From an uncultured Candidatus Saccharibacteria bacterium (lineage in GTDB: Bacteria; Patescibacteriota; Minisyncoccia; UBA6257; 2-01-FULL-56-20): a stretch of 64,000 nt of DNA. Under the pieces are notes generated by a model, which saw only the letters and a list, made by a program, of their open reading frames with translations, ran no database searches and was not told the DNA's origin. Position 1 is the stretch's first letter; the number at the start of each line of letters is the position of its first letter. Positions 3,742-57,507 of this stretch are shown here, one piece after another. The stretch covers positions 50,458 through 114,457 of the forward strand of contig CAZDFQ010000001.1 in assembly GCA_964505005.1 (NCBI GenBank), read 5' to 3'. A program made the translations under genes and the position numbers.

Positions 3742-3748
3742 TGTAGTT

Positions 3749-5497: not shown

Positions 5498-5512
5498 ATT
5501 TGCAGACTGAGA

Positions 5513-15929: not shown

Positions 15930-16113
15930 AAATGCAAAATGACCCGCCCGCCTTGCTTCGCAACGCGAAGCGGGCAGGCAATTAAAAATGTCAAAAATGT
16001 TTAATTCCAAAATCCGACTTTAACATTTGGTAATTTTTCAATTTTGCCTTGTCATTTTGGATTTTTCCGCCAAAGGCGGATCAGCCTTGGGCTGAGATTT
16101 TTGATTTTTGAAT

Positions 16114-17559
16114 TTATATCAGCGGTTCCGGTTCTTCGGGGATTTTTTCTTTCTTTTTGCCTTCGATAATGGCTTTTTCTTGGAGCGTCCGGATGATACT
16201 GGCTTCTTCCTCGGCAATCAGTCTTTTCGCCGCCGCCACGGTCATGGTATATTTCTGCCGCGACTGCTCGATTATTCTTCTCCGATACGACTGATGAGCG
16301 GCGGGCAGAACCTTCAGTGTTTCGGCTGAAAACGGGTCGTAGGTCTCGCCGTCAATGGTCATCTTGATGTAAAACTCCTGAGTGGCGAGATTAATCATAT
16401 CTTTTATATCGAACACCGGCGCCATCTCCGGTTTGAGCTTTACGGCGTCATCGCCGCCGACCCGGAAAACAATAATGGCGCCGCTGTTGCCAAGCACCGC
16501 GGCTTGAACGCGCGGCAAAAGCTGCCCCAAGTATTGATGAGCCACGGTCATACAGATGCCGTATTTGCGGAGCTCGGTCAGCATATTTTCAAAAGTTTCG
16601 GTAACCAAGTTGTGGAACTCGTCCACATAAAGATAAAAATCCTCGCGTTCGGCTTCGGCTAAATTAGCTCTGGCCATGCCGGCCTGTTTTATTTTGGTTA
16701 TGAACATCGAACCGAAAAAGCTGGAATTCTCCTCGCCCAATCTCCCTTTGCAGAGATTTATCAGGATTAATTTTTTTTCATTTATAAATCTTTCCAACTC
16801 GATTTTATTTTCTTTTTGACCGAAGATGTTCCGAAGAAGGGGGTCGGAGAAAAACTGGCCGAGTTTATTGACCAGCGGGATAATGGCGTCGGTATCGAAT
16901 TTCTCCGACCAATCGGCAAATTCAATGGCCCAAAACCGGCGGACCATATCGTCTTCGATGTGTTCAATGACTTTCTGGCGGTAATTCCGGTCGGTCAATA
17001 TAGAAATCATTCCCCGCATGGTGGCCTGAGGATAATCAAGAAGCGCCAGAATCGTAAAACGAAACACATGCTCAAGTCGAGGCGTCCAGTTGGCGCCGAA
17101 CTGTCTTTCGACCACTTCAATCAAACCCTGAGCCAGTTGATGTTTAAACATCGGGTCAACATTGACCAACGGATTGAAAGAAACCGGATGCTCGACATCG
17201 CTCGGGTCAATCAAAACCACATCCTCAATCCTTTCCTCGGGAATAAAATCGAGAATGTTATTGATGGTATCGCCGTGAGGGTCAATCAAACAGAGACCGT
17301 GGCTGTAAGCAACATCCTGACGAACCAGAAGTTCCAAAAGCTTGGACTTACCGACTCCGCTTTTGCCGACAATATAAACATGCCGGCGCCGATCGCCTCT
17401 TTTGATGCCGAAAATAAATTTCTTTTCTTCGAGGGCCGCCACATAATTTGTCCGACCGATAAAAGAAACATCGGCCGGATTAACCCGACCGTACACCGGC
17501 AGTTCCGGCGGCGGCGGCGCATATTTTATGATTTGGATTCTTCCTTCCCGAGGAGCCAT
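16114..17559 (-). CDS. VirD4/TraD-like P-loop ATPase (paralog of the N-terminal 480 aa of 8741..10897)
   Basis: 481 aa; FGIKRGDRRRHVYIVGKSGVGKSKLL Walker A, DEFHNL, AHQ; collinear similarity to the 718-aa protein. Confidence 0.8.
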   Translation of the reverse strand: MAPREGRIQIIKYAPPPPELPVYGRVNPADVSFIGRTNYVAALEEKKFIFGIKRGDRRRHVYIVGKSGVGKSKLLELLVRQDVAYSHGLCLIDPHGDTINNILDFIPEERIEDVVLIDPSDVEHPVSFNPLVNVDPMFKHQLAQGLIEVVERQFGANWTPRLEHVFRFTILALLDYPQATMRGMISILTDRNYRQKVIEHIEDDMVRRFWAIEFADWSEKFDTDAIIPLVNKLGQFFSDPLLRNIFGQKENKIELERFINEKKLILINLCKGRLGEENSSFFGSMFITKIKQAGMARANLAEAEREDFYLYVDEFHNLVTETFENMLTELRKYGICMTVAHQYLGQLLPRVQAAVLGNSGAIIVFRVGGDDAVKLKPEMAPVFDIKDMINLATQEFYIKMTIDGETYDPFSAETLKVLPAAHQSYRRRIIEQSRQKYTMTVAAAKRLIAEEEASIIRTLQEKAIIEGKKKEKIPEEPEPLI

Positions 17560-17729
17560 ATCTTAAGAAAATCCTAATTTCTAAATCCTAAATTCTAAAT
17601 AATCTCAAATGTTCTAAATCAAAATAAAAAATATGTTTATAATTTTGGATTTTGGTCATTTGTCCGCCATCTGGCGGATTATTTAGAAATTAGATAAATT
17701 AGATATTAGGATTTAGGATTTTTTATTAT
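17560..17729. repeat. composite palindromic intergenic repeat (family 1) with central GTCCGCCATCTGGCGGA hairpin
   Basis: aatcctaatttctaaatcctaaattctaaataatctcaaat ... gtcatttgtccgccatctggcggattatttagaaattagataaattagatattaggatttagg. Confidence 0.7.
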
Positions 17730-18209: not shown

Positions 18210-18354
18210 AAAAATAATAAATCCTAAACCCGAAATCCTAATTTCTAAATAATCCGCCAGGTGGCGAACAAATGACCAAAATCCAAAATTAAAAAGTTTT
18301 TAGAATTTGAAATTAGAATTTTGAATTTGTTTAGGATTTAGAGATTAGAGATTT
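18210..18354. repeat. composite palindromic intergenic repeat (family 1) with central CGCCAGGTGGCG hairpin
   Basis: aatcctaaacccgaaatcctaatttctaaataatccgccaggtggcgaacaaatgaccaaaatcc... Confidence 0.7.
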
Positions 18355-23911: not shown

Positions 23912-24067
23912 ATTAGCGCAATTCGAATGACTCGAATCCGACTCGAGCGTCTCGAAAATTTGTCCAAAAAGATTATTCTTATTCGAGCGATTCGAATGTA
24001 TCCGAGATATTCGAGTTGCATAATATTATATCTTTTGACGATATTCTATCTATTTTGCCGCATTTTT

Positions 24068-27578: not shown

Positions 27579-27581
27579 AAT

Positions 27582-27680
27582 TTGTCCGCCCTGAAGGATT
27601 CGAACCTTCGACCATCTCCTTTCCGCCAAAGGCGGATCAGCCTCTGGCTGAAAAAGGGAGCTGCTCTCTAAAATAAATGA
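27582..27680 (-). pseudogene. tRNA-Lys 3' fragment (from D-stem 3' side to acceptor end) carrying a ~32-nt GC double-hairpin insertion at anticodon-loop position ~37/38
   Basis: AGAGCAGCTCCCTTTTT[CAGCCAGAGGCTGATCCGCCTTTGGCGG]AAAGGAGATGGTCGAAGGTTCGAATCCTTCAGGGCGGACA; identical to the intact tRNA-Lys outside the insert; 5' half replaced by AT-rich sequence. Confidence 0.55.
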
Positions 27681-27685
27681 CTTTT

Positions 27686-27762
27686 GTCCGCCCTGAAGGA
27701 TTCGAACCTTCGACCATCTCCTTAAAAGGGAGCTGCTCTACCGGACTGAGCTAAGGGCGGAC
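27686..27762 (-). tRNA. tRNA-Lys (anticodon UUU)
   Basis: GTCCGCCCTTAGCTCAGTCCGGTAGAGCAGCTCCCTTTTAAGGAGATGGTCGAAGGTTCGAATCCTTCAGGGCGGACA; cloverleaf by eye, loop CTTTTAA; flanks extend the acceptor helix (AAATGACTTTT/AAAAGTCATTT). Confidence 0.8.
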
Positions 27763-28013: not shown

Positions 28014-28205
28014 ATTCGACCCTCTCCTTTCCGCCGAAGGCGGATCAGCCTCTGGCTGAAAAAGGCAGTTACTCTACCAGTTGAGCTACGGGGGATATTT
28101 ACTATCGACGAGCGCCCTGGTCCGCTAAAACTTGTTTTGCAAAGGGAGCTGCTGCTCTGCCTCCGCCAACCGGCGGATGAGCTACGGGGGGTTGTCTGCA
28201 ATCAA
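28013..28205 (-). pseudogene. two degenerate tRNA 5' fragments, each interrupted by the CCGCC..GGCGG hairpin element (one in anticodon loop, one in D-loop)
   Basis: CCCCCGTAGCTCAACTGGTAGAGTAACTGCCTTTTT[CAGCCAGAGGCTGATCCGCCTTCGGCGG]AAAGGAGAGGGTCGAAT and CCCCCGTAGCTCA[TCCGCCGGTTGGCGGA]GGCAGAGCAGCAGCTCCCTTTG. Confidence 0.4.
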
Positions 28206-28847: not shown

Positions 28848-28883
28848 TTAATCTAATAATTTTAATTTAAATTTACAAAATTA

Positions 28884-28980
28884 CTATCACTATATCACAA
28901 TTGTGATATAGTGATAGCATCTGATTCTGATTCGGTTTGATGATTACTATATTTATATCACAATTGTGATATAAATATAG
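28884..28980. promoter_or_regulatory. two copies of a ~34-bp perfect palindrome (core TATATCACAATTGTGATATA) upstream of the HD gene and downstream of dnaJ
   Basis: CTATCACTATATCACAATTGTGATATAGTGATAG (28884-28917) and CTATATTTATATCACAATTGTGATATAAATATAG (28947-28980); family recurs at ~39099, ~57451, ~62789. Confidence 0.45.
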
Positions 28981-29044
28981 TTCGAGTTTGTTCTCTTTCT
29001 TCAACTTTACTAATTCTTCAATCTTACCAGATTAGATAGAGGAG

Positions 29045-30169
29045 TTATTCTGATTCTTCTTGAAGGTCTTCCAAAATTTTTTTGGCTTTAGGGCTCAATT
29101 TTTTCGGCGCTTTAATGATAAAACTCACCAGCAAATCTCCTCGGCCAAAACTGCCGAAGTGCGGCATTCCTTCGCCGGGAATCCGCAAATTGTCTTTGAG
29201 ATTGAAATGCGCTGGAATCTCCACCTGAAGTTTGCCGCCGCTGATAGTCGGGATTTCAATTTTTTTCCCAAGCAATAAATCAAGAATCTTGAGTTCCTTT
29301 TTGATAATCAAGTCATCGGCTCGGCGCTCAAACAACGGATGCGGTTTGATTTTTATCCGCACATACAAATCGCCGGTCGGCGTACCTAATTCCCCGGCTT
29401 CGCCGGCTGACTTAATTTTTATGAATTGCTCGTCCTGGACCCCGGGCAGAATTTTTAATTCCAGCGTCCGTTCGCCGCTTAGCCGACCGCTGCCCCGGCA
29501 GGTCTCGCAGATTCTATTCGGAATCCGGCCGGAGCCGCGGCAACGGCCGCAGGTTTTTATTTGAGAAAAGCTGCCGAAAAATGTCTGGCGCTTTTCGCGG
29601 ATTTCGCCCTGGCCATTGCAGGCATCGCAGGTTTTTGAGCCAGCTGAGACATCACCGCCCTGGCCTTGGCAAACATTGCAGGAAACAAAGGTTTTTATTT
29701 TGAGCTGTTTGATGGCCCCGCGAAACGCTTCTTCCAAAGTTATCTCCTGGACAACTTCAATGTCCGAGCCCCGCTGATAAGTGCGCCGTCTGGGTTTGGC
29801 GCCAATGCCTTCAAAAAAGCTCTCCAGAATTTCGTTGACATCGCCGAAATCGTAAAAAGAGAATTCCTGGCCGCCAAAGCCCGGTCCTCCTCCGCCAGCT
29901 GGCGGATGAAAACCGCTGAAATCCCAGCCAGCCGGCCCGCCCTGGGCCGAGAATCCGCCGAAGGGCTCGGCCGTACCGTAAGTATCGTAAAAACTCTTTT
30001 TCTTTTTATCAGAAAGAATCTGGTAGGCCTCGTTGATTTCCTTGAACTTCTTTTCATCGCCGCCGGCTTTGTCCGGATGATATTTGTGAGCCAGCCGGCG
30101 GTAGGCCTTTTTGATTTCTTCTTCAGAGGCGTTGCGCGCAACGCCCAAAATTTTGTAGTAATCTTTCAT
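29045..30169 (-). CDS. dnaJ: molecular chaperone DnaJ
   Basis: 374 aa; J-domain YKILGV...HPD, G/F region, four CxxCxGxG repeats. Confidence 0.9.
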
Positions 30170-30248: not shown

Positions 30249-31382
30249 ATGCGACTCATTACAGATAAAACAGCAAAATTGCTCTATGTTTCTCCGGCGC
30301 AGGATTCCGACATTTTTTGGGCAACGAAATTCGAGGCGCCGGATCCGTTTATTTTCGTGGAATATCGAGGGAAAAAATACATTATCGTCAACAGCCTGGA
30401 ATATGGAAGAGCCAAAAAAGAAGCCGAAGTTGATGAAGTGCTACTCGACAGCGATGTCTGGAAAAATAACAGAACCAGAACGATTTCCAGGGTCATCGCC
30501 GAATTTCTGAAGGGGCTCGGCAGTCGGACAATAGAAATTCCGGAAAATTTTCCGGCTGTCTTGTATCAAAAATTAAAAAACAAAAAATTCCGTTTCCGCT
30601 TTAAGGAGCCGCCGTTCTTCCCCAAGCGACTGATTAAAACAAAAGAGGAAATTGAAGATATAAAATTGGCGCAAAAAGCGCTGGAAAAGGCGTTTAAAGC
30701 GGTCAAGAAGGTTTTAGCGGCTGCCAAAATAAAAAACAGCAAAGTCCGGCGGAGCGGAAAAATAATTACTTCAGAATTCTTGAAAGACGTTTTCGAATCT
30801 GAATTGAACCGCTGGGGCTACGTTTCGAGCGGGACAATTTTCGCTTCCGGCGAACAGGCAGTTGACCCGCACCACGAGGGTTCGGGGCCGCTCATTCCGA
30901 ACACTTTAATTGTCTGCGATATGTTTGCGAGAACCAAAAAAGGACATCACTGGTCAGATATGACGCGGATGCTGGTCAAGGGCAAAGCCACAGCGGAAAT
31001 GAAAAAAATGTTCAGAGCCGTGCGATTGGCACAGAAGCAAGCCGAAGAAATGGTCAAACCAGGAGTTGACGGCTATGACATTCATCAACGGGCGGTAAAA
31101 ACTTTTGAAAAACTCGGCTGGAAAACCGGGAAAATCAACGGCGGATTGCAGGGATTTATCCACGGCACCGGTCACGGCATTGGTTTGGATATTCACGAAC
31201 TGCCGCGCCTCGGCCTCGTCAAAAACCAAATTCTTCGAGCCGGTAATGTCATCACCATCGAACCGGGTTTGTACTATCCCGGCCTTGGCGGCTGCCGCCT
31301 CGAGGACACCGTGGTCGTCAAAGAAAAGGGCTTTGAAAATCTGGCGAAAAATGTGAGTAAAGAGCTTATCGAAATCCCGTAA
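30249..31382 (+). CDS. M24 family Xaa-Pro aminopeptidase / creatinase-like peptidase
   Basis: 377 aa; HGTGHGIGLDIHE and ...GNVITIEPGLY pita-bread fold motifs. Confidence 0.75.
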   Translation: MRLITDKTAKLLYVSPAQDSDIFWATKFEAPDPFIFVEYRGKKYIIVNSLEYGRAKKEAEVDEVLLDSDVWKNNRTRTISRVIAEFLKGLGSRTIEIPENFPAVLYQKLKNKKFRFRFKEPPFFPKRLIKTKEEIEDIKLAQKALEKAFKAVKKVLAAAKIKNSKVRRSGKIITSEFLKDVFESELNRWGYVSSGTIFASGEQAVDPHHEGSGPLIPNTLIVCDMFARTKKGHHWSDMTRMLVKGKATAEMKKMFRAVRLAQKQAEEMVKPGVDGYDIHQRAVKTFEKLGWKTGKINGGLQGFIHGTGHGIGLDIHELPRLGLVKNQILRAGNVITIEPGLYYPGLGGCRLEDTVVVKEKGFENLAKNVSKELIEIP

Positions 31383-31390
31383 TAGTAACT

Positions 31391-31487
31391 CACATAATCC
31401 GAATGAATCCGAATAACATCCGAATGCCCCGAATAAATAAGTGGTATTCGTGTTATTCGGATGAATTCGGGTATTCGGATTATGCGG
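31391..31487. repeat. ~100-bp family-2 hairpin repeat (ATTCGGAT units), inverted partner of 36799..36896 (~93% identity as reverse complement)
   Basis: cacataatccgaatgaatccgaataacatccgaatgccccgaataaataagtggtattcgtgttattcggatgaattcgggtattcggattatgcgg. Confidence 0.65.
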
Positions 31488-31519
31488 CAACAAAGCCGGA
31501 GGCGCGCTATTCGTATGCC

Positions 31520-32629
31520 TCACGAAAACTCGATTGTCTCGCGCATCACTGATTCCCCGCGGACATAAATGATGTCAAGGCCAAGGAACAATTCATAGAT
31601 AACAAAAGCCAAGAAAATAATTAACCACCAGAAAACGGTTCCAATACTTCTGACGAGCAGAAACATTAAGGCCGCCCAAGCGAACAAAAACCAGCTGCCG
31701 AATTCCAGCCGCCAGTTTTCAAAAGTTTTCGTCAAAAAATTATAGATAACATCAACAACCGGCTCTTTGCCGGATAAATTCATTCCCAGATATTTGTTTA
31801 TTGCTGTCATAATCTGGCTGGCGGTCTGTTCAGTCACTTGTTTCTTGACCGCCGGAGGCACGACTTTCCAAGAATTGTCTTTAGAAAGCTGATATTCGGC
31901 TGAGCTTGTCGTGAAATCTTTCAAGTTGGAATGAAGATTTAATTCTGGATAAAAACTTTCGATGCTCATAATGCTCCAGCCGGCTGCTGATTCGAACCAG
32001 GCCTTGGAGATTAAAGCGCCTCCGCCTTCCCATTGCGGCAGATAAAAAAGAACAAAAAGAAGCGACAGGGCCGTGACCGTTCTTTTGGCCAGCGGCGTCG
32101 TGCTCCTGAAAAATCGGAGTTTAACAGAATTCAGTAATTCTGTGCGGCTCAAAACCTCGCCGAAACCGATAATAAAAAAGACGACGAGGCCGGTAGCCAC
32201 CAAAAAGCTGAGCGATTCCCGGTAAAAAAAGAAAAGCAGGGCGATAACTTCAAAAATCAAAATCAGAAATCGCCTTTTTAAACTCTGAATCAAAAGAACT
32301 CCTAAGCAGGAAAATATAATTAGAAAGCCGGTGCTGACAAGTAAAGGAGAGATTATGCGGCTGTCAACAAAAAATTTAAAAGAATAGCCAGCGGCCAAGG
32401 CCGAAACAACGGTTAAAACATCCAGTCCGAGCAGCCAGTAAAATCCTTTGGGCTTGGGTGTTTTTTCTACAATAACTTGCTTGAGGAGATTAACTTCTCC
32501 AGGGTCAGGATATCTCCAGCGCGGCCCCCTTAGTCGGTCTTCATTTAGATTCGTCTTCTTGTTCGGGTTCTGATTTTCCAGCATCGCCTTGATTATAGCA
32601 TCCGAATAGCGCGCTACGAAAGCGCCCAT
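31520..32629 (-). CDS. hypothetical polytopic membrane protein
   Basis: 369 aa, multiple TM segments, no motif recognised. Confidence 0.4.
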   Translation of the reverse strand: MGAFVARYSDAIIKAMLENQNPNKKTNLNEDRLRGPRWRYPDPGEVNLLKQVIVEKTPKPKGFYWLLGLDVLTVVSALAAGYSFKFFVDSRIISPLLVSTGFLIIFSCLGVLLIQSLKRRFLILIFEVIALLFFFYRESLSFLVATGLVVFFIIGFGEVLSRTELLNSVKLRFFRSTTPLAKRTVTALSLLFVLFYLPQWEGGGALISKAWFESAAGWSIMSIESFYPELNLHSNLKDFTTSSAEYQLSKDNSWKVVPPAVKKQVTEQTASQIMTAINKYLGMNLSGKEPVVDVIYNFLTKTFENWRLEFGSWFLFAWAALMFLLVRSIGTVFWWLIIFLAFVIYELFLGLDIIYVRGESVMRETIEFS

Positions 32630-32690
32630 CCGAATGAATAAGCATCATTCACTTAATCTTGCGCAACAGCCAAAATCTAAAATTCAATGT

Positions 32691-34583
32691 TTAGGTCGGA
32701 TTATCAGTCCCTTTATCGTTTCCCTCTTGATTAGGTGAGGGGTACATTATCTGCCCGATTTTTTGAAGTTCAGCCGAGAGTTCGGCAACGGCTGACTTCA
32801 GGGCGTCGCTGTCGCGGTTTTCCTGCCCGCTTCGACTCGCGTCAAGCGAGGCGAGAAGGCCTTTTTTGAGGGCATCGATTTTTTCATTGACGGAATTTTT
32901 AAGTTCAGCCGGAATTTTGTCGCCGGCGTCTTTAAGGGCTTTTTCAGCCGTATAAATCAAGGTCTCGGCCTGATTGCGGGTCTCGGCCAGCTCGCGCTTT
33001 TTCTGGTCTTCAGCAGCGAATTTGGCCGCCTCGTTTTTCAGGCGCCCTACCTCTTCTTTGGACAAACTGGTGGAGGCCTCGATGCGGACGGACTGGGATT
33101 TATTGGTGGCTTTATCCTTGGCGGAAACGTTCAAAATGCCGTTAGCGTCAATGTCAAAAGTAACCTCAATTTGCGGCAGGCCGCGGGCTGCTGGCGGAAT
33201 GCCGTCCAAAATGAAGCGGGCCAGGGTTTTATTGTCAGCGGCCATCGGCCGTTCGCCCTGCAGCACATGGATTTCTACCGAGGTCTGGCTATCCGCGGCG
33301 GTGGAAAAAATCTGGGTTTTGGAAGTTGGAACGGTCGTGTTCTTAGGAATCATCGGCGTGGCCACCGCGCCCAAAGTTTCGATACTCAAAGTCAGTGGCG
33401 TCACATCCAAAAGAAGAATGTCTTTAACATCGCCCTGCAAAATGCCGGCCTGGACCGCGGCGCCCACGGCCACCACCTCGTCGGGATTTATGCCTTTGTG
33501 CGGCTCTTTGCCAAAAAGGTTTTTAACCGCCTCCTGCATGGCCGGCATCCGGGTCTGGCCGCCGACCAGAATGACCTCGTTGATTTCCGAAAGTTTGAAA
33601 CCAGCGCCTTGGGGCGGTGCCGAAGTAACGGTTTCTTTGACGAGCTCAATGGAGCGGTCAATGTAATCCCGCACCAAATCTTCGAGCTTGGCCCGCGAGA
33701 GTTTCAGTAAAAAATGTTTTGGCCCGGCAGCGTCGGAGGTGATGTAAGGCAGATTTATTTCGGTTTCCGTAACCGTTGACAATTCATGTTTGGCTCTTTC
33801 CACTCCCTCTTTGAGTCGCTGAAGCGCCAGCGGGTCTTTGGAAATATCAATGCCTTCCTGTTTTTTGTATTCAGCCACCAGATATTCGTTGAGGCGCTTG
33901 TCAAAATCGTCACCGCCGAGATGGGTGTCGCCGCCAGTGGCTTTCACTTCGACCGTGTCGTCGCCGACTTCTAGAACCGAAACATCGAAAGTGCCGCCGC
34001 CGAAATCGTAAACCACGATTTTTTCATTTTTTTGTTTGTTGAGACCATAAGCCAGAGCCGCGGCTGTCGGCTCGTTGATGATGCGGCGGACTTTGAGACC
34101 GGCGATTTCGCCGGCATTCTTGGTGGCCTGGCGCTGGGAGTCGTCGAAATAAGCCGGCACGGTAATCACCGCTTCTTCGATTTTTTCGCCGAGCTTGGCT
34201 TCGGCGTCGGCTTTGAGCTTGGCCAGAATAAAAGATGAAATTTCTTCAGGCGAATACCATTTATCGCCCATCTTTATTTCCACGCCAGCCGAAGCGCTTT
34301 GCTGAATGTCATAAGGCAGCCAGGCCTTGTCGTGTTGGATTTCCTCGCTGATGAATTTCCGGCCGATGAGTCGCTTGACGGAGAAAATCGTGTTCTTGGG
34401 ATTGGTGATGGCCTGACGTTTGGCCAAAAGACCGACCAACCGCTCATTGGTTTTGCTGACGGCCACGACTGACGGCGTGGTTCGGCTGCCTTCGCTGTTT
34501 TCCAGAATTTTCGGTTCGCCGCCTTCGACAATCGCCATTGCCGAATTAGTGGTACCAAGGTCAATACCTAAAATCTTTGGCAT
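32691..34583 (-). CDS. dnaK: molecular chaperone DnaK (Hsp70)
   Basis: 630 aa; [29 protein letters not shown] Hsp70 signatures. Confidence 0.95.
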
Positions 34584-34679
34584 AATTTTAAAAAGTTAAA
34601 TGTTTAATGGGACATGCGACATGGAATAAAATTATACTTGTGATTCTCGTAATTTGTCCATAGTTTCTCTGCCCTTGTT

Positions 34680-35207
34680 TCATTTCGCTTGTCGCTGTTT
34701 GGACACTTTTACTCTTGCCGGCCTCAAAAGCTTGCCGTTAAGCCGGTAGCCGACTTCGATAATCTCAATAACTTCTCCGGCCGGTTTGTCTGATTCGGAT
34801 TCGGCAATGGTTTCGCTCGTTGCTGGATCGAATTTATCGCCAACCTTCAACTGGATCCTCTCCAGCCCATGCTGTTTCAATATATCTTCCAGCTGGGAAC
34901 GAATCATATAAATCCCTTTTTCGGCCTTGCCCTCTTTTTCGAGCGCGGCCAGGCCCAAATCAAAGCTGTCCAGCACGCCGATTAATTCTTTCAGCAATTC
35001 CTCGTTGGAAAAACGGACGATTTCCTCAAAACGTTTGACTTCGTCTTTTTTGTAATTTAAAAAATCAGCCCGGGCTCGCTGCCAGCCGGCCAGATACTCG
35101 TCACGCTCTTTTTGACACCTCGCAAGTTCGGCCGTTTCTTTCGCTTCTTTTACCTCTTCTTTTTTTTCTGCCTCTGTGGAATTATCTTTCTGAATTTCTC
35201 CAGCCAT
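34680..35207 (-). CDS. grpE: nucleotide exchange factor GrpE
   Basis: 175 aa; ...RARADFLNYKKD... GrpE motif; directly downstream of dnaK on the same strand. Confidence 0.85.
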   Translation of the reverse strand: MAGEIQKDNSTEAEKKEEVKEAKETAELARCQKERDEYLAGWQRARADFLNYKKDEVKRFEEIVRFSNEELLKELIGVLDSFDLGLAALEKEGKAEKGIYMIRSQLEDILKQHGLERIQLKVGDKFDPATSETIAESESDKPAGEVIEIIEVGYRLNGKLLRPARVKVSKQRQAK

Positions 35208-35307
35208 AATTAATACTTAAATTATATAAATAAAATATTCTATGTCAATATATATAAACATAATATAACGTTTTCTCGACGATCGTCAATTATTTGTTAC
35301 AAAAAAT

Positions 35308-35913
35308 TTATAAAAATTCATCATCGTCTATCTCACTTACCGTCATTAAATGCAGATACTGATCTAACTTCCGTATCAAAATCTCCTCATAGAAATCTTT
35401 CGCCACTGGTTGCTTGCCAATAAAAACGCTTTTTTGAAGAGGCTTATAATCCAAACTAACAAGTTGCCAGCGCAACCAATTACGGCTTTCTCTCTTTCTC
35501 TCTGGTATATCAAACATTATTATCCGCCATTTACCATCCCAAAATTCTTTTCTCTGTTTTTCTTTATGAAAAACTTTAACAATATTTAATCCCTGCGAAG
35601 TTAATCGGTAGCGACCTTCTTCTCTTTTTACTAATCCTTTTTTCTGGAGCCGCCAAAGAATTGTCCGAGCGCTATTTTGTTTTATATTTTTCAATTCATC
35701 ATAATAATCCCAAAAATCTTTCGTTTCTTCAATCCTTTTTAAACTCCGCCTCATTCCTCTTTTGGGTCCTTCAAGTATTTCAGAAACCGCTACTGCCCCT
35801 CTTCCAGCTAAACTGAAAATCAAGGCCAAACCACCGATGCCCAAATTAATTGGCAGTTCTTTTATTCTATTTTTTAATTCCCTTTTATTCATATTTCTCA
35901 TATTGTCTAGCAT
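35308..35913 (-). CDS. PaaX-like transcriptional regulator (wHTH plus PaaX C-terminal-like domain)
   Basis: 201 aa; ...WDGKWRIIMFDIPERKRESRNWLRWQL...GY..LQKSVF resembles PaaX_C; flanked on both sides by direct repeats containing TTGACGATCGT(C/T)AA palindromes. Confidence 0.45.
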   Translation of the reverse strand: MLDNMRNMNKRELKNRIKELPINLGIGGLALIFSLAGRGAVAVSEILEGPKRGMRRSLKRIEETKDFWDYYDELKNIKQNSARTILWRLQKKGLVKREEGRYRLTSQGLNIVKVFHKEKQRKEFWDGKWRIIMFDIPERKRESRNWLRWQLVSLDYKPLQKSVFIGKQPVAKDFYEEILIRKLDQYLHLMTVSEIDDDEFL

Positions 35914-36145
35914 TGTTAGTATAACATTTAATTGACGATCGTTAATTAAATGTTACATCTTTCGGCAAGCGCTAAACAGAAAATAATGATGCCCGCACTT
36001 TGGATTCAGGCGGCGGGCCAGCTTGTTCAGCCGAGTTTCACGGCTGAATGGTTTATTTCTTGGTCTTGGGCGGGGCACCGTAGGGACTCCCTTGCCAGAG
36101 TCGCCAGGCCAGCCGCTGCCAGAAACTTTAGCTTACCCACATCCG

Positions 36146-36370
36146 TCACCCTCTCTCGTGTTCGTGTTCCACAAAGCGATTATAGGGAATACCCTGTTGG
36201 ATAAGGTAACCGGTTATTGCCTCATCCACTTCTCGCCACGGGACTTTCCTTTCCACCCCATGAAAGCAGTTGTCGCAGAGGAACCGCCGTCTATCTTTCG
36301 GAACCCGTACCTCGTCACCGCAGGAGGAACATACGATGGTGTGGAACTTAACTCTCGGAGACACTCCCAT
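36146..36370 (-). CDS. small zinc-ribbon protein (CSSCGDEV family), GC-rich islet
   Basis: 74 aa; ...IVCSSCGDEVRVPKDRRRFLCDNCFHG; shares C(S/R)(S/R)CGDEV with the ORF at 48599..48850. Confidence 0.4.
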   Translation of the reverse strand: MGVSPRVKFHTIVCSSCGDEVRVPKDRRRFLCDNCFHGVERKVPWREVDEAITGYLIQQGIPYNRFVEHEHERG

Positions 36371-36629
36371 GGCTGCTTCCTCCCCTGCTATCGCTTCCTG
36401 ACTTCCCCCGGCATTCGTCGCAGAGCGTCATTCTCACCTCCCACTCTCCTGCCCGGGCTTTGAGGCTCAGGATGTCGAGCGCCGTGAGCTCCTGCCATTC
36501 GTCATACTTATGGACGCGATGACAGGAACTACAAGTCATCACCTCCAGCATTCGCCTATCTCCGTTCATTATTCTTTTCACCTCCTCCATCTTATCCACC
36601 GGAGCCAGCGACATCGCTACCGCTGACAC
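36348..36629 (-). CDS. small zinc-ribbon protein, overlaps downstream paralog by 23 nt
   Basis: 93 aa; ...CSSCHRVHKYDEW...CDECRGK; ~58% GC islet 35950-36780. Confidence 0.35.
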   Translation of the reverse strand: MSAVAMSLAPVDKMEEVKRIMNGDRRMLEVMTCSSCHRVHKYDEWQELTALDILSLKARAGEWEVRMTLCDECRGKSGSDSRGGSSHGSVSES

Positions 36630-36798
36630 CAGCCGTTCAGTTTACCGTTCTGGACGAGAACACCATACTTCAAGCAATACGGTCTTCTTCGCATGCTCTC
36701 CCCTTTCTTTTCGCTTTCGTCCAACTCAAACTTCTAAGAATAATTTAGCCACCCTAAAGAAAAGGGTCAAATAAAAATTTCCACAGGCACCTTCGCCG

Positions 36799-36896
36799 CC
36801 ACATAATCCGGATACCCGAATTTATCCGAATGATACGAATACTGCTTATTTATTTGGGGCATTCGGATGTTATTCGGATTCATTCGGATTATGTGG
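36799..36896. repeat. ~100-bp family-2 hairpin repeat, inverted partner of 31391..31487
   Basis: ccacataatccggatacccgaatttatccgaatgatacgaatactgcttatttatttggggcattcggatgttattcggattcattcggattatgtgg. Confidence 0.65.
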
Positions 36897-36935
36897 TCTT
36901 CTCTATTTTGCGACATTTATGATAAAATGTATTGG

Positions 36936-37880
36936 ATGACTGAAATAGAAAAACTTTTGCAAAATTATTTGGATTATTTGGAAATTGAACGAAATCGTTC
37001 ACCGAAAACCCGGGAGAATTACGAACATTATCTCAAAGAATTTTTGCGGTTCAACCGCATCAGGAAACCGGAAGATATTACCGATGAAGCGGTCAGAAGC
37101 TTCCGGCTGGCTTTGGCCCGCCCGAATTTCGCAAAGCGAAACTCAAGCGGGCAAGTCCGAGCGCTCAAAAAAATCACCCAGAATTATTATGTCATCGCCA
37201 TCAGGAACTTTTTGAAATATCTCACTAAGAGGGATATCAAAGTTCTACCAGCGGAAAAAATCGAACTGCCCAAAACTCCCAGCCGCCAGCTCAAAATCAT
37301 CGATTACGGCGATTTGGAACGGCTGCTGGACGCGCCCAAAGGCGGCGATTTACGCTCGCTGCGGGATAAAGCGATTTTGGAAACGTTTTTTTCCACCGGC
37401 CTGCGGATTTCCGAGCTTTGTTCTTTGAATCGTTATTTGAATATCGACCGCGGCGAAATTACGGTCCGCGGCAAAGGTGATAAACTACGGCTTGTTTTTC
37501 TTTCTAACCGAGCCAAAAAGGCCATCAAAAACTATTTAGCTAAGCGGACTGACGCTGAAGAAGCGCTTTTTGTAAGTTTAACTAAAAGCTCAAAGCTCAA
37601 AGCTCAAAGCTTATCTAAAGTCATCGGCAGAATCATCCCCCGGACAGTCCAGCGCTTGGTGAGTTTTTACGCCCGAAAAGCCGGCATTAGCGAGCGCATA
37701 ACCCCTCATCAACTCCGGCATCAGTTCGCCACCGACCTTTTGCTGAACGGCGCTGACTTACGCTCGGTCCAAGCGCTTCTCGGCCATTCCAATATCTCCA
37801 CCACGCAAATTTACACCCATCTCACCAACAAAGAACTCCGTGAAGTCCATAAGGCCTTCCACGGGAGAAGGAGGAAATAA
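36936..37880 (+). CDS. tyrosine site-specific recombinase, XerC/XerD family
   Basis: Start taken at MTEIEKLLQNYLDYLEIERNRSPKTRENY... (the ORF-track start at 36867 lies inside the repeat); C-terminal RHQFATDLLLNGADLRSVQALLGHSNISTTQIYTHL catalytic R/H/Y region. Confidence 0.85.
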   Translation: MTEIEKLLQNYLDYLEIERNRSPKTRENYEHYLKEFLRFNRIRKPEDITDEAVRSFRLALARPNFAKRNSSGQVRALKKITQNYYVIAIRNFLKYLTKRDIKVLPAEKIELPKTPSRQLKIIDYGDLERLLDAPKGGDLRSLRDKAILETFFSTGLRISELCSLNRYLNIDRGEITVRGKGDKLRLVFLSNRAKKAIKNYLAKRTDAEEALFVSLTKSSKLKAQSLSKVIGRIIPRTVQRLVSFYARKAGISERITPHQLRHQFATDLLLNGADLRSVQALLGHSNISTTQIYTHLTNKELREVHKAFHGRRRK

Positions 37881-37885
37881 ATTTA

Positions 37886-37930
37886 GTAAGTGCACGTTGC
37901 TGGGTCGAACCAGCGGTCTTTTCGACTTGC
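37886..37930 (-). pseudogene. tRNA 3'-end-like remnant (T-arm plus acceptor strand) between recombinase gene and tRNA-Val
   Basis: minus-strand reading GACCGCTGGTTCGACCCAGCAACGTGCAC has a T-arm-like GCTGG-TTCGAC-CCAGC; weak. Confidence 0.3.
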
Positions 37931-37944
37931 CCCGTTAAATTTTT

Positions 37945-38016
37945 GTGGACGGTGCAGGGATTGAACCTGCGACCTCTCGCATGTGAAGCGAGCGTTCTGC
38001 CACTGAACTAACCGTC
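37945..38016 (-). tRNA. tRNA-Val (anticodon CAC)
   Basis: GGACGGTTAGTTCAGTGGCAGAACGCTCGCTTCACATGCGAGAGGTCGCAGGTTCAATCCCTGCACCGTCCA; anticodon stem CTCGC/GCGAG, loop TTCACAT. Confidence 0.8.
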
Positions 38017-38106
38017 CGATTGAGTGCCACGTCTGCCCGTCATAGCTTTACGCGAAGACGGGAGCTAAGAACGCTATGAAAACATCTTATATAATATTAT
38101 CATATG

Positions 38107-38237
38107 CCAGGTAGTGAAAATTCGACTGTTATGCTATAGCATAACACCTGAAATAAATTTGCCATTATTTGGCTCTAATTGTAAGAAATATAAGACCGAC
38201 ATCTTTAATAAATTATAGTCGAATTTCTACTACCTAG
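38107..38237. mobile_element. 131-bp MITE-like element with imperfect 18-bp terminal inverted repeats, ending 4 nt before the nuclease start codon
   Basis: CCAGGTAGTGAAAATTCG...GTTATGCTATAGCATAACAC...CGAATTTCTACTACCTAG; second copy at 53553..53686; first 47 bp identical. Confidence 0.6.
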
Positions 38238-39044: not shown

Positions 39045-39175
39045 TTGTCGAAAGTCACTCAACGACCTTTGTAGCCCTCGCTTACCCGTTTACTAACATT
39101 ATATCACAATTGTGATATAGTAATAGTAACTTCACGACCCCTCTTTTATTGCTTTGCTCGGCTATCCAAAGAAGA

Positions 39176-39544: not shown

Positions 39545-39718
39545 AAATTTACAATCTCTAATTTCTAAATCCTAATTTCTAAATAATCTCAAATGTCCAA
39601 AATCCGAAGTTCAAAACCGTTTTTGAAATTTGAAATTAGAATTTTGAATTTATTTAGGATTTAGATATTAGGATTTAGGATTTCACATTATGACGACCTT
39701 TTTGCCCTTCGATTGAAC
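39545..39718. repeat. composite palindromic intergenic repeat (family 1)
   Basis: tctctaatttctaaatcctaatttctaaataatctcaaatgtccaaaatccgaagttcaaaaccgtttttgaaatttgaaattagaattttgaatttatttaggatttagatattaggatttagg. Confidence 0.7.
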
Positions 39719-40255: not shown

Positions 40256-40556
40256 ACTTTTGTCATAATGCGAATCTACGAATTAATTATGCGAATGCCA
40301 CGAAAATTTTTCGCATCATTAGTATCATGCTTAACAAAAAACCTGCCTCCAAAGCAGGTACATCGGCTGATTATTTTTCAGCTTTCAATCCTCGGCGGGG
40401 CTTATATATTACGATTGGCCCGCTGTCTTTGGAGTTAGAAAAAATAATAGCAAACACCAAAAATCTGTCAACTCTACATATAACTTTACTTCCTGCCGCC
40501 GCCAAAGTGTTATGCTATGGCATAACACCTATGTGCTGATAAGTTTTAGGCATTGG

Positions 40557-43677: not shown

Positions 43678-43898
43678 TTCAATTCTAAAGATCTTAAAAC
43701 ATATTCGTATAATTCGTATGCCATTCGTAGATTAGGATTATATCTCAAGCAACTCGGCATAATGCGAATAATACCTGCCCGCCAATTGCCTTCTAAGATG
43801 ACTGGGATAATAATTTGGACATTTCCGACCGTTTTGAAATCACTACTAAAATTTGATTGACAGGCTTTGGCAGGCGGGCGAATTCTTATGCGAATTAT
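43678..43898. repeat. intergenic repeat (family 2, ATTCGTA/CGAATA units) with GCAGGCGGGCG hairpin
   Basis: catattcgtataattcgtatgccattcgtagattaggatt...cataatgcgaataatacctgcccgcc...ggcaggcgggcgaattcttatgcgaattattt. Confidence 0.55.
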
Positions 43899-47296: not shown

Positions 47297-47465
47297 ACTT
47301 TAAAAATCCAAATTTCAAAATCCAAATGACAAATTAATAACTAAAATTCAAAAAGTTTTTGACTTTTGGGCTTTGGATTTGATTTGAAATTTGGGCTTTG
47401 AAATTCGCCATTTAGGCTGTTTTGTTTGATGCCAAAAGACGAATAATAGATTTATAAGATGGGCT
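47297..47465. repeat. composite palindromic intergenic repeat (family 1, CCAAAT/ATTTGG variant)
   Basis: aaaaatccaaatttcaaaatccaaatgacaaatt...tttgggctttggatttgatttgaaatttgggctttgaaattcgcc. Confidence 0.65.
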
Positions 47466-49260: not shown

Positions 49261-49549
49261 TGCCGCGGGGGTGAATCGAACACCCGACGCCATGCTCTTC
49301 CATAAGGACTATATCATCATCCGGTTTTCAAACGGATGCGAGGCGCTTCCTCCGACGTAACGTCGGCGTACTCCCAAAGGGATAGTCTCTACACCTGCCC
49401 CGGCTAATGTCGGGGATTGGCTCGGGATTGTCCGCCCCATCCGTAGATGCCGGCGGAGTTCCCCCGAATTCACCTCGTTTTCATCTAAGCATTACTGCTT
49501 AGCGGCCCGAAGATTCCAGGCATGCGCTCTACCACTGAGCTACCGCGGC
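49261..49549 (-). tRNA. tRNA (probably Phe, anticodon GAA after splicing) interrupted by a ~217-nt group I intron in the anticodon loop
   Basis: 5' exon GCCGCGGTAGCTCAGTGGTAGAGCGCATGCCT (49549-49518), 3' exon GAAGAGCATGGCGTCGGGTGTTCGATTCACCCCCGCGGCA (49300-49261); intron (49517-49301) ends in G, preceding exon ends in U, and contains GGTGTAGAGACTA and CCGAGCCAA, near-identical to the Azoarcus tRNA-Ile group I (IC3) intron core; exon junction and anticodon are inferred. Confidence 0.65.
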
Positions 49550-50867: not shown

Positions 50868-51016
50868 GGGTGGAAATAAACAGCGTAAAATTGCCTTGTC
50901 GCAAAAATTAGAGTATAGTTATTCTGAAAACAGAATGCCAAACCACGAATGGATGCGAATACCGCGAATAAAAACTCAATTCGGATGCATTCGTAGTCAT
51001 TCGTAGCATTTGTAGC

Positions 51017-52103: not shown

Positions 52104-52462
52104 GAAGGAGGTGAAGGGAGAAGCTGTTTGACAAGGGCGACCGTTTCGGTTGGGCGATGTAGCTGTCAGGGCGGGGTGACCGTTGGGGTTGGGCGAGCTG
52201 TACGGATGGGGTGACCATTCTCCGGGGGCGAGCTGTTTCATCTGGGTGGCCGTAATTGAGGGGCGCAGTAACCAACTCGCTAAGGAGGTGATGAGAGCTG
52301 TGTTTATGGGGTGACCGTTTATCCGGGGCGAGCTGTATGAGGTGGGTGGCCGTCTTGTGAGGGCGAGCTGTTCTTTAAGGGTGACCGTGGCCCATGGGTG
52401 AGCTGTTGTAGCAGGGTGACCGTAGAAAATGGGCGTAGTAACTACGCCGAAGGAGGAATGAA
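52104..52462. repeat. array of alternating short direct repeats R1 GGGCGAGCTGT and R2 GGGTGACCGT, each followed by a variable 7-mer (35-bp period, ~8 units), upstream of the IS110-like ORF
   Basis: e.g. gggcgagctgt-acggatg-gggtgaccat-tctccgg-gggcgagctgt-ttcatct-gggtggccgt-aattgag...; units 1, 5 and the last are split by SD-containing inserts (AAGGAGGTGA...). Confidence 0.75.
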
Positions 52463-53248
52463 ATGGAGACGAGGAAGACGGGGCTGAACGAGTTGGAAGA
52501 GCGGATCGTCGTGGCTGCGTACAAGCTGGTGGAAGCCCAGCGGCAGCGCGGCCGCATCGGCCGGATAATCGGCAGAATCAAGCCGACAGCTGGCCGAAAC
52601 GGTTGGAAGCCCAAGCCGCCTGGGCCACTCCGGCATCTCCGCGTCCAGGCCTTCGCCGAAGTCGGCTTCAGCGAACCCGAATACGAGGCCTGGGAGCCGA
52701 AGATCGAGGAGTACCGACAGGAGCTCCAGGCGCTCGTGCGTGAGCATCCGGTTTGGACCACTTGGGCTGTCAAGGTGCCGGGTCTTGGGAAGACGATGAC
52801 CGGCCTGGTAATGGCCGCCATCGGCGATGTGACGCGGGTGCACACCGCGTCCGGGCTCTGGAAGTCGTTTGGCCTCCATGTGGACAACGAGACCAAAATG
52901 GCGGTCAAGCCCCAACCCGGCGTACCCGGTACGCTTGGCCATCCGTTCGCCAGGAAAATCCTGGGCGTGATGCGGTCAACCTACTTCCGCATCGGCGCCA
53001 AGGGCCAGGGCGGTTTCTATTACGACCGCTACCTGGAGAAGCGCCGGGAGTACGACCAAGCGCATCCGGACTGGCCCGAAGGCCGGCGCCTGGGCGCGGC
53101 AATCCGCAAGTTCGAGAAACTTCTCCTCTCCCACATCTGGGAGGTGTGGAGAAGGTCCAAGGGCCTACCGGTGTTGCCGCCTTATGCCGTGGCCCAACCC
53201 TGGAGCCTGCACAAAAAAATCAGGCCCGAGGAAGCGATGGCGCAGTAA
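52463..53248 (+). CDS. IS110-family transposase C-terminal (Transposase_20-like, HhH/IGD) domain protein lacking the DEDD RuvC-like N-domain; Arg-rich N-terminus
   Basis: 261 aa; VKVPGLGKTMTGLVMAAIGDVTRVHTASGLWKSFGLHVDNETKMAVKPQPG fits IS110 C-domain (IPGIG..TA..L.AEIGD..RF.S...L..Y.GL.P....SG); N-term RQRGRIGRIIGRIKPTAGRNGWKPKPP; strong [18 protein letters not shown]; ~62% GC. Confidence 0.5.
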   Translation: METRKTGLNELEERIVVAAYKLVEAQRQRGRIGRIIGRIKPTAGRNGWKPKPPGPLRHLRVQAFAEVGFSEPEYEAWEPKIEEYRQELQALVREHPVWTTWAVKVPGLGKTMTGLVMAAIGDVTRVHTASGLWKSFGLHVDNETKMAVKPQPGVPGTLGHPFARKILGVMRSTYFRIGAKGQGGFYYDRYLEKRREYDQAHPDWPEGRRLGAAIRKFEKLLLSHIWEVWRRSKGLPVLPPYAVAQPWSLHKKIRPEEAMAQ

Positions 53249-53452
53249 GCCCGAAGGGTAAACTGTATGAATTGGGTGCCCGTACGTCTGGGGCGAGCTG
53301 TTTGCATTGGGTGACCGTTTTTGCGGGGCGAGCCGTACTACGCGGAGTGACCGTGGCCCGAGGGCGAGCTGTTTGACAAGGGCGACCGTGGTTGTTGGGC
53401 GAGCTGTGGGGGCTGGGTGACCGTTTCGAGAGGGCGCTGTTCAACAAAAGGA
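53249..53452. repeat. downstream array of the same R1/R2 + 7-mer units (~7 units)
   Basis: ggggcgagctgt-ttgcatt-gggtgaccgt-ttttgcg-gggcgagccgt-actacgc-ggagtgaccgt-ggcccga-gggcgagctgt-ttgacaa-gggcgaccgt-...; 7-mer ttgacaa also present in upstream array. Confidence 0.75.
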
Positions 53453-53495: not shown

Positions 53496-53552
53496 AATGA
53501 ACAAAGTCGAACTATTTATACCGCCTCGATTTTTTTATATAATGGAATTCGT

Positions 53553-53686
53553 ATGCCAGGTAGTGAAAATTCGACTGTTATGCTATAGCATAACACCTAA
53601 ATAAGTCGTCATTATCCAGGCTAATCATCGTAAATAAATATATAAATGTTGGAATTGATAAACTAAATCGAATTTCTACTACCTTG
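53553..53686. mobile_element. second copy of the 131-bp MITE-like element, ending 1 nt before the cysS start codon
   Basis: CCAGGTAGTGAAAATTCGACTGTTATGCTATAGCATAACACCT...CGAATTTCTACTACCTTG; related palindrome GTGTTATGCTA(T/C)(A/G)GCATAACAC also at ~40517 and ~49668. Confidence 0.6.
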
Positions 53687-53687
53687 T

Positions 53688-55133
53688 ATGAAAAATCGAA
53701 TTCGTATTTTCGACACCTTATCGGCTAAAAAGAAAATTTTGAAGCCATCGAGGGGCAGCGCCATCCGGCTTTTTGTGTGCGGGCCGACGGTCTATGACTA
53801 CAGCCATCTTGGCCACGCCCGAACTTATGTTTTTTTTGATTTTCTAGTCAAATACCTCAGGAATCGCGGCTTGAAAGTTTTTTATCTTCAGAACATCACC
53901 AATGTTGACGACAGAATCATCAAGCGCGCCAGAGAAAACGGCAAGGACCCTCTCAAGCTGGCTGATTTTTTCACCAAAGAGTATTTCCGCGATATGAAAT
54001 CGCTCGGCATCAATTCTGTTGATGTTTATGCGCCGGCTACCAGATTCATCCCCCCAATCGTGAGACAGGTCAAAACCCTTCTTAAAAAAGGTTATGCCTA
54101 CAAAATAGAAAACGACGGTTATTATTTTGACATTTCGCGCTTTCCCGAATACGGGAAATTATCCAAGCGGACGGCCGGTCAGGCCGAAGACGCGGTCTCG
54201 AGAATTGACGAAAGCGTCCGCAAAAGGAATAAAGGCGATTTTTGTTTGTGGAAGCTTGGGCAAAAACAGACGATAACTTCGAAATCGTTTGCCGTCATTA
54301 ACGGCGAACCGCTTTGGGAAACTTCCCTCGGCTGGGGCCGGCCGGGCTGGCATATTGAAGACACGGCGATTTCCGAACATTATTTCGGGCCACAATACGA
54401 CCTTCACGGCGGCGGCCTGGATTTGAAATTCCCCCATCATGAAGCCGAGATTGCCCAGCAGGAAGCCGCCTCGGGCAAAAAACCATTTGTCGAAATCTGG
54501 CTGCACACCGGTATGCTCTACATCGAAGGCAAAAAAATGAGCAAAAGTTTGGGAAACTTTATCACCATCAGGTCGGCGCTGAAAAAATATCCATCATCGG
54601 CGCTTCGTTTTCTCTTTTTGAGTCATCATTATCGTTCGCCGCTTGATTTCAAAAAAACTCAAATCGAGAAGGTGGAAAATACCCTGAAAGATGTTCGATT
54701 GTTCATCGGTAAACTCGATTTTATCATTAAGAAACAAAAAATTTCTCGCCGACCCAAATTGAAAATAAAAAATTATTCTCAAGCTTTTTTTGAAGCGCTG
54801 GATGACGATATAAATACTCCAAAGGCATTGGCTGTTTTATTCAAGCTTTTCTCCGAAGCCAACAAAATAGTTTTTCAGCTGAACAAGGCAGCGGCGCGGC
54901 GAATCAAAGAATTTGTCAAAAAAAGCTTCTCTCTTTTCGGCGTAAACTTCTCCTTGCCGAAAATTCCTTTAAAAATAAAGCGTCTGGCGGCTGAACGGGA
55001 GGAATTCCGAAGAAACAAACAGTTTATCCAGTCCGATGCCTTGCGGAAAAAAATCGCTTCATTAGGATATGTAATTGAAGATACACCAATAGGTCCCTTT
55101 CTGTGGCCTAAAATCCGAAGCACGAAATTCTAA
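53688..55133 (+). CDS. cysS: cysteine--tRNA ligase
   Basis: 481 aa; CGPTVYDYSHLGHAR (HIGH) and KMSKSLGN motifs. Confidence 0.9.
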   Translation: MKNRIRIFDTLSAKKKILKPSRGSAIRLFVCGPTVYDYSHLGHARTYVFFDFLVKYLRNRGLKVFYLQNITNVDDRIIKRARENGKDPLKLADFFTKEYFRDMKSLGINSVDVYAPATRFIPPIVRQVKTLLKKGYAYKIENDGYYFDISRFPEYGKLSKRTAGQAEDAVSRIDESVRKRNKGDFCLWKLGQKQTITSKSFAVINGEPLWETSLGWGRPGWHIEDTAISEHYFGPQYDLHGGGLDLKFPHHEAEIAQQEAASGKKPFVEIWLHTGMLYIEGKKMSKSLGNFITIRSALKKYPSSALRFLFLSHHYRSPLDFKKTQIEKVENTLKDVRLFIGKLDFIIKKQKISRRPKLKIKNYSQAFFEALDDDINTPKALAVLFKLFSEANKIVFQLNKAAARRIKEFVKKSFSLFGVNFSLPKIPLKIKRLAAEREEFRRNKQFIQSDALRKKIASLGYVIEDTPIGPFLWPKIRSTKF

Positions 55134-57431: not shown

Positions 57432-57507
57432 AATATAAATTAACTATTATTATATCGCATATGTGATATAATAATAGTAAGAATAACTTAGCTGCCAAAT
57501 CTTTGAA

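Follow-up and report, generated by a model that had tools for sequence, protein, structure and literature searches.

The window analysed here, a 64-kb stretch of contig CAZDFQ010000001.1 from an uncultured Candidatus Saccharibacteria bacterium, carries a block of heat-shock genes bracketed by two long inverted repeats, with a gene for a tyrosine recombinase directly outside one of them. From left to right, the locus consists of dnaJ (29045-30169, minus strand), an M24 (Xaa-Pro-type) peptidase gene (30249-31382, plus), the left repeat copy L (31391-31495), a gene for a 369-aa multi-pass membrane protein, here called X (31520-32629, minus), dnaK (HSP70; 32691-34583, minus), grpE (34680-35207, minus), a gene for a PaaX_M/winged-helix regulator (35308-35913, minus), a GC-rich (~55%) orphan islet (35960-36790), the right, inverted copy R (36791-36895), the gene for a 314-aa Xer-type tyrosine recombinase (xer; 36936-37880, plus) and tRNA-Val(CAC), called by ARAGORN (37945-38017, minus). 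L is positioned between the convergent 3' ends of the peptidase gene and X, and R between the promoter regions of the islet and of xer, which are divergent. The genes of the bracketed block, with two Zn-ribbon open reading frames (ORFs) in the islet, and the start of xer 40 bp beyond the right repeat are as stated in a preliminary description of this DNA. That description had considered an invertible segment or a recombinase-borne islet integrated at tRNA-Val and, as a fallback, two recently duplicated repeat copies.

The ~100-bp inverted repeats it had reported around the dnaK-grpE-regulator block are real. A repeat search of the window gave L and R as 105-nt arms with 90% complementarity and a spacing of 5295 nt, which makes them the longest inverted pair within the entire 64 kb. 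In a blastn comparison within the window they are 92.6% identical over 94 nt (E=2e-33), and no further match to either copy was longer than 15 nt. A 28-nt core shared by L and R occurs exactly twice, against 0 occurrences expected from shuffles. The orientation is truly inverted, with 94 identical positions in an ungapped alignment, while the direct orientation gives only a gapped score of 19. The outer 40 nt of L (31391-31430) are 100% identical to the reverse complement of 36856-36895 in R. The copies differ at 11 positions; every difference is a transition and lies outside this outer arm.

A point absent from the preliminary description is that L and R are each, on their own, a near-perfect hairpin of ~92-100 nt. 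Their folding energies range from -41 to -53 kcal/mol, compared to about -25 for shuffles (z -5 to -8). The hairpin arms are composed of three or four 10-11-nt units containing TCCGAAT. The L hairpin spans ~92 nt (31393-31484), with four TCCGAAT-type units per arm and a small GC hairpin on the inner side, and the R hairpin spans ~100 nt (36798-36897). Since each arm of the pair is itself a unit-built hairpin, the 'inverted repeat' consists of two oppositely placed copies of one palindromic element.

This element is not confined to the dnaK locus. When each intergenic region was folded (neither a generic sliding-fold scan of 130 nt nor a finder of ungapped palindromes was informative), many regions of the window, including most of the longer ones, were seen to hold comparable 90-115-nt hairpins of 10-11-nt units, in tandem, convergent and divergent gene contexts. 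Examples lie at 2520-2616, 5369-5483, 8619-8719, 17566-17720, 39545-39718, 47311-47405 and 55109-55283. The type of unit varies from one hairpin to another (TCTAAAT/CCTAATT, TCCAAAT, ATCCGCA, CTCGAAT); the 101-nt hairpin at 8619-8719, for instance, is related to L and R and built of ATCCGCA/TGCGAAT units. Near-identical pairs occur among these sequences too: 17636-17693 and 18238-18295 are inverted copies (95%) around a gene for a 159-aa protein, and 16054-16115 and 63594-63655 (94%) are 47 kb apart. A profile of the CCGAAT family recognised diverged members at 50931-51009 (the best match in the window after L and R), 23917-24019 (in a divergent intergenic region, with CTCGAAT/TTCGAAT units), 40264-40325, 43696-43742 and 8677-8723. 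In the window, the family comprises the two near-identical copies L and R and at least five diverged members. The entire element is palindromic and therefore has terminal inverted repeats, with the ends CATAATCC...GGATTATG. The base of the stem covaries across the family, from CATAATCC...GGATTATG to GCGATCC...GGATCGC. Since both sides change together, the hairpin itself is the conserved feature.

Such covariation could mean that the two hairpins serve as boundaries of the heat-shock locus, kept similar by a shared factor and acting as bidirectional transcript-end or RNA-stabilising signals or as supercoiling/insulator elements. The position of L exactly between convergent 3' ends agrees with this, as do the unit-built hairpins that relatives carry at the same X|dnaJ slot and at grpE|dnaK. 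However, no U-tract or T-run follows L or R on either strand, and the terminator scan lists neither of them. R lies upstream of both divergent promoters and not at a transcript end, and the unit sequences vary between elements, so that no single binding factor fits. In a comparison of the two strands of 16 elements that lie between co-directional genes, the better fold was that of the transcribed strand in 8 elements and that of its complement in the other 8. We see no evidence for RNA-level elements or classical terminators, because the strands fold equally and U-tracts are missing at L and R, and a role at the boundaries of the locus is improbable. Selection at the RNA level was rejected on the same 8:8 count. 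Of the five in-stem differences that set R apart from L, four are G.U-compatible, and this only on the plus strand of R; the number is too small for an interpretation, and the pattern is inconsistent with L. A structured-RNA explanation for the hairpins or the islet was also dropped, as no Rfam family was found at the gathering threshold or at E<=1, save for a meaningless miRNA-precursor match on R. The unit-built hairpins behave as DNA-level palindromes.

In a genome collection, the pattern ATCCGAATN{2,5}CCGAATN{2,5}CCGAAT matched at least 118 stretches; the matches listed include no Wolfebacteria record. Among the matches listed are full-length copies (72-81%) with the same architecture in several other metagenome-assembled genomes (MAGs) of the candidate phyla radiation (CPR), labelled Saccharibacteria, Staskawiczbacteria and Roizmanbacteria, and several copies in GCA_027310625.1 ('bacterium clean1841'), one of the two closest relatives by Xer identity. 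In the latter genome the copies lie at unrelated places, including directly 5' of the 23S rRNA gene and inside the intron-expanded 23S span. In the fetched locus (L105), CCGAAT hairpins at 2709-2781 and 5078-5151 are ~90% similar to each other and in direct orientation, and the 23S rRNA gene extends over 2798-7152.

The CCGAAT-family profile was also run on relatives' loci that had been fetched through their proteins. Here, unit-built hairpins occupy the same intergenic slots. The locus L145 has a 100-nt hairpin at X|dnaJ (14074-14173), which the family profile matches, and a 114-nt hairpin at grpE|dnaK (11158-11271). Further hairpins lie at grpE|dnaK in L121 (7373-7460) and L142, at X|dnaJ in L143, and at rplL|rplJ in L211 (12401-12485), where the profile recognises the hairpin as well. 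The sequences of the hairpins held by the grpE|dnaK, X|dnaJ and rplL|rplJ slots differ between genomes. Since relatives carry unit-built hairpins at X|dnaJ, L sits in a long-standing hairpin slot.

The REP/BIME/REPIN elements of proteobacteria are 20-40 bp long, GC-rich and marked by a conserved GTAG/CGTC tag (PMC3337134, PMC3733652). The elements described here resemble them in being extragenic, non-coding, hairpin-forming and multi-copy, and in lying inside operons and at operon ends in both orientations. However, they are ~95-115 nt long and AT-rich, have three to four tandem 10-11-nt units per arm with variable unit sequence, and carry no such tag. With MITEs (miniature inverted-repeat transposable elements) such as Correia/NEMIS, RUP and BOX (PMC3184786) they share a length of around 100 nt, palindromy of the whole element, intergenic location and near-identical copies that suggest recent mobility. 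They differ from these in that L and R have no target-site duplication visible at their flanks and no identified parent insertion sequence (IS), and in that the family is defined more by its architecture than by a consensus. We searched the literature and found no description of this unit-built palindrome class in CPR genomes, so the class in this lineage is apparently undescribed.

At least eight distinct Wolfebacteria-like relatives have regulator-grpE-dnaK-X-dnaJ as an uninterrupted series of genes on one strand, and cysS and dnaB lie upstream of it in divergent orientation. The two genomes whose Xer proteins are closest, Liptonbacteria GCA_001818615.1 (81%) and GCA_027310625.1 (80%), have (dnaJ), X, dnaK and grpE on one strand and xer divergent from them, followed by tRNA-Val, SNase, rplL and rplJ, as in the window. 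In neither of the two does a CCGAAT hairpin stand at the junction of grpE and xer or on the downstream side of X. In the loci L207-L211, which lack the L/R repeats, xer is at the same position as well. Since the order is the same in both closest-Xer genomes, the adjacency of xer and dnaK and the tRNA-Val-SNase-rplL neighbourhood are ancestral synteny. The assembled orientation of the block is also ancestral, because, as in the relatives, the X end is turned towards dnaJ, a gene on the block's own strand, and the grpE/regulator end towards xer. The same order in relatives had been named beforehand as one half of what would speak against a segment that inverts or has been integrated. Compared to these genomes, the features derived here are the insertion of the peptidase gene and L between X and dnaJ, which are contiguous in all relatives, the presence of the orphan islet and R between the regulator gene and xer, and the loss of the genes that part xer from tRNA-Val in relatives.

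The recombinase matches the models of XerC (238 bits), XerD (227 bits) and XerA (222.3 bits) over their full length. It passes the NCBIfam cut-off for XerA (222.3 vs 220) and scores below the equivalog cut-offs for XerC and XerD. Its Pfam domains are Phage_int_SAM_1/4 and Phage_integrase, and its best solved relatives are the P. abyssi XerA-like protein 4A8E, E. coli XerD 1A0P and XerA 5HXY. Thousands of proteins from Wolfebacteria, Liptonbacteria, Harrisonbacteria and other Paceibacterota share 70-81% identity with it, and its conservation is at the level of DnaK (76-84%) and above that of GrpE and the regulator. Because it is conserved like DnaK across thousands of orthologues, we regard it as a core housekeeping Xer and not as an element-borne integrase or a locus-specific invertase. 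Judged from sequence and synteny, it would be the housekeeping Xer with which this lineage resolves chromosome dimers, and it keeps its ancestral place next to grpE-dnaK. In its full-length matches to Xer models and its XerA score above the cut-off it resembles the single-recombinase Xer systems (archaeal XerA; XerS/difSL; XerH/difH).

Tyrosine-recombinase switches, such as fim with FimB/FimE, the Bacteroides invertons and the shufflons, have inverted repeats of about 9-30 bp around a promoter or alternative gene ends and are served by a dedicated invertase. The locus in the window is similar in having a segment that is bounded by inverted repeats and adjoins a tyrosine recombinase gene. However, its repeats are 105 nt long, self-complementary and dispersed, the bounded 5.3 kb are a housekeeping operon whose predicted promoters lie inside, and the Xer is conserved. 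Recombination between L and R would flip a 5.4-kb segment with the dnaK operon, either through the adjacent Xer-type enzyme or occasionally through RecA acting on the 40-nt core. Besides the long repeats adjoining a recombinase gene, recurrent exchange is compatible with an outer arm in which none of the differences falls, and the independent contigs, all of which end inside the hairpins, give no readout of orientation. Inversion driven by the adjacent recombinase, as the preliminary description had it, is nevertheless not supported: the core Xer sits at the same place in relatives without the repeats, and the arms are members of a dispersed hairpin family. The assembled orientation is ancestral on both flanks, and tyrosine invertase models match the recombinase weakly and partially (E about 1e-10 to 1e-11; scores about 41-42 vs cut-offs of 221-222). 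No partial gene ends lie at the arms, and the predicted promoters and operators drive the internal genes. Since the predicted operon promoters are internal, a flip would not switch expression. We therefore regard an invertible segment as very unlikely; an infrequent flip of the RecA type across the 40 identical nt is possible but unsupported.

The proximity of xer to tRNA-Val, 64 bp from its 3' end, had suggested a genomic islet with Xer as its integrase and with ends marked by the hairpins or by a tRNA remnant. Between xer and the tRNA gene, at 37885-37944, the preliminary description had seen a tRNA 3'-end remnant. The T-arm-like sequence GCTGGTTCGACCCAGC is indeed present there, but ARAGORN and Rfam make no call and the fetched loci contain no match. 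It may be a scar of the gene loss between xer and tRNA-Val. The 0.8-kb GC-rich orphan insert nearby would fit an islet as well. On the other hand, we looked for a second att site, as the preliminary description had proposed, and found that neither the 3' half of tRNA-Val nor the sequence at 37885-37944 is repeated in direct orientation in the window. Relatives show synteny of xer, tRNA-Val, SNase and rplL, with tRNA-Val likewise between xer and SNase, and only the 0.8-kb islet is unique. The recombinase is of the housekeeping type and highly conserved, and the bracketed genes are a conserved heat-shock operon. A genomic island at tRNA-Val was rejected on the lack of an att-like repeat in the window and on the conserved operon, and an islet brought in by the recombinase is hardly conceivable.

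The reading that we favour, with a probability of roughly 0.8, is that L and R belong to a dispersed class of palindromic repeats and were copied or homogenised recently, and that their bracketing of dnaK and their proximity to xer are coincidental. The class behaves much like REPs and MITEs and is common between the genes of this Wolfebacteria/Liptonbacteria-like genome and of other CPR genomes. This is the fallback of the preliminary description, and the evidence supports it. The anatomy of the copies, their family membership, the synteny and the lack of att repeats are the observations on which it stands. One copy (L) would have come to lie in an old hairpin slot downstream of the membrane-protein gene of the operon, and the other (R) in the xer-proximal spacer beside the orphan GC-rich insert. 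We infer that the high identity of L and R arose from recent copying or gene conversion, with no dedicated recombination system involved, and that the block does not invert. The adjacent housekeeping Xer would not be expected to act on the arms. The unit-by-unit diversity of the hairpins suggests that units are turned over in place as well as copied. The arms would play no part in the control of the heat-shock operon, because the operon has predicted promoters of its own, with operators, within the block, from which it would be transcribed.

Several observations weigh against this reading. L and R are the only near-identical copies of the CCGAAT family, a count that covers the 64-kb window. 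No mobilising enzyme, target-site duplication or parent IS with matching ends was identified, although REP-associated tyrosine transposases (RAYT) were not searched for. All 7 of the in-hairpin differences between L and R sit in the remaining 54 nt (p about 0.02, post-hoc), and the difference-free 40-nt outer arm could fit gene conversion or occasional or ongoing exchange between L and R. Finally, four of four independent k=31 Logan contigs from two runs (L001, L120, L212 and L213) end inside the hairpins and none crosses them, so a minority inverted form is possible.

The contigs were found by exact-protein look-up, in which the deposited, shorter ORF calls for the regulator and a Zn-ribbon protein (P0001, P0241) matched; look-ups with our own versions of the regulator, of Xer and of the 93-aa Zn-ribbon protein returned no contigs. 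L212 approaches from the peptidase gene, L001 from the membrane-protein gene, and L120 and L213 from the islet. Their ends lie mostly about 30 nt into the shared 40-nt core. Since a k=31 de Bruijn assembler stops in this way at a repeat, these ends are uninformative on orientation. The breaks inside the hairpins, in contigs of both runs, might also indicate that the MAG assembler mis-joined contigs at the 40-nt core, in which case the bracket or the position of the peptidase gene would not be real. However, the inner and outer flanks of both copies are supported by independent contigs from the expected sides and the resulting order is conserved synteny on both sides, which makes an artefact extremely unlikely. 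Since the Logan contigs all break there, the repeat is an assembly hazard, and unit-built palindromic repeats of this kind break short-read assemblies. Long inverted repeats beside xer in CPR genomes can be copies of abundant palindromic repeats and call for caution; a flip-flop dnaK operon or an Xer-borne island would have been unusual, had either been true.

A more far-reaching reading, which we put forward tentatively and hold to be doubtful, is that ~95-115-nt unit-built palindromes form an undescribed Patescibacteria-wide class at the DNA level. Its members would occupy persistent slots, including the flanks of rRNA genes, with units turning over and elements being spread or homogenised by copying; the 40-nt identity would be the footprint of exchange, and the dnaK operon would occasionally be flipped as a by-product. 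The class may merit a survey and could be studied in the many available MAGs. This repeat class and the TIGR-Tas locus described below are of more interest than the inverted pair itself.

The bracketed genes appear to form a CPR-specific heat-shock operon headed by the PaaX_M/winged-helix regulator; in Wolfebacteria-like relatives the reg-grpE-dnaK-X-dnaJ operon opens with the regulator gene, and dnaJ is the ancestral last gene. X was recognised as a membrane protein by hydropathy; it has no Pfam family, is 24-38% identical in relatives and is the conserved fourth gene of the operon. Strong predicted promoters with an operator-like palindrome lie directly upstream of the regulator and grpE, all inside the block. 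The grpE promoter (35248-35221) matches the sigma-70-like consensus at 12/12 positions and is overlapped by the palindrome TGTAACA..TTGACGATCGTCAA..TGTTATA (35261-35301), and a second copy (35917-35957) overlaps the regulator promoter. This ~40-nt palindrome, with the general form TATAACA..CGATCG..TGTTATA, recurs upstream of the regulator in the relative L139 (9926-10002). The regulator and the palindrome are likely a CPR-specific heat-shock repressor/operator pair, with the regulator's own predicted operator seemingly replacing HrcA/CIRCE.

The islet (35960-36790) has a strongly negative GC skew and a terminator-like hairpin on the plus strand (36023-36051). Its two Zn-ribbon ORFs, 36146-36370 and 36348-36629, overlap on the minus strand and their coding status is uncertain. 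The 93-aa ORF has no homologue besides itself among 5.8 billion proteins, and the 74-aa ORF gives only sub-threshold treble-clef/CxxC-x17-CxxC matches. The islet is absent from all relatives; neither as DNA nor in translation is it similar to any of the fetched loci or to other parts of the window. A mobile unit travelling with the hairpins was rejected on this lack of similarity and on the lack of a homologue of the 93-aa ORF.

The motif TTTTGCGACA is conserved directly upstream of xer in four genomes: the window (36905-36916), L173, L211 and L207 (7960-7975). In the window and L173 it precedes a -10-like box by about 9 nt, and the L207 copy is reversed. The motif could belong to a promoter, be a site for a regulator or form part of a dif-like site. 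The sequences at 38100-38152 and 53549-53601 are direct copies of a 53-nt repeat (96%); one is found upstream of SNase, beside tRNA-Val, and the other upstream of cysS. The cysS-dnaB pair is directly upstream of the regulator in Wolfebacteria-like relatives, and in the window it is about 18 kb away. The 53-nt copies may point to a rearrangement or may be a regulatory element that the two places share.

Two arrays with a 35-nt period, at 52122-52436 and 53261-53437, contain the conserved blocks GGGCGAGCTGT and GGGTGACCGT alternating with two variable blocks of ~8 nt. They flank a 261-aa ORF (52463-53248, plus) with a strong ribosome-binding site and no Pfam match, which matches PDB 9mty_A (IS110/Nop-type C-terminal domain) with E=6e-11. 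TIGR-Tas systems consist of dual-repeat, dual-spacer arrays and Nop-domain Tas proteins (PMC12045711). The region 52.1-53.45 kb fits these published arrays and proteins and is a probable TIGR-Tas locus.

Near tRNA-Lys(TTT), the 3' 41 nt of the tRNA gene are duplicated exactly 102 nt downstream (27581-27621 and 27683-27723), which may be an integration/excision scar or a local duplication. A double-hairpin sequence beside this tRNA gene recurs 408 nt away with 92% identity (27607-27667 and 28015-28075). A group I catalytic intron lies at 49295-49527 on the minus strand (Rfam RF00028, 63.6 bits, gathering threshold 50), and no rRNA is called in the window. Finally, a 42-nt palindrome of the perfect type, with the form TTACTAT..TATATCACAATTGTGATATA..ATAGTAA occurs in five intergenic copies (28881-28922, 28944-28985, 39090-39131, 57441-57482 and 62780-62821), which look like operator sites of one regulator.

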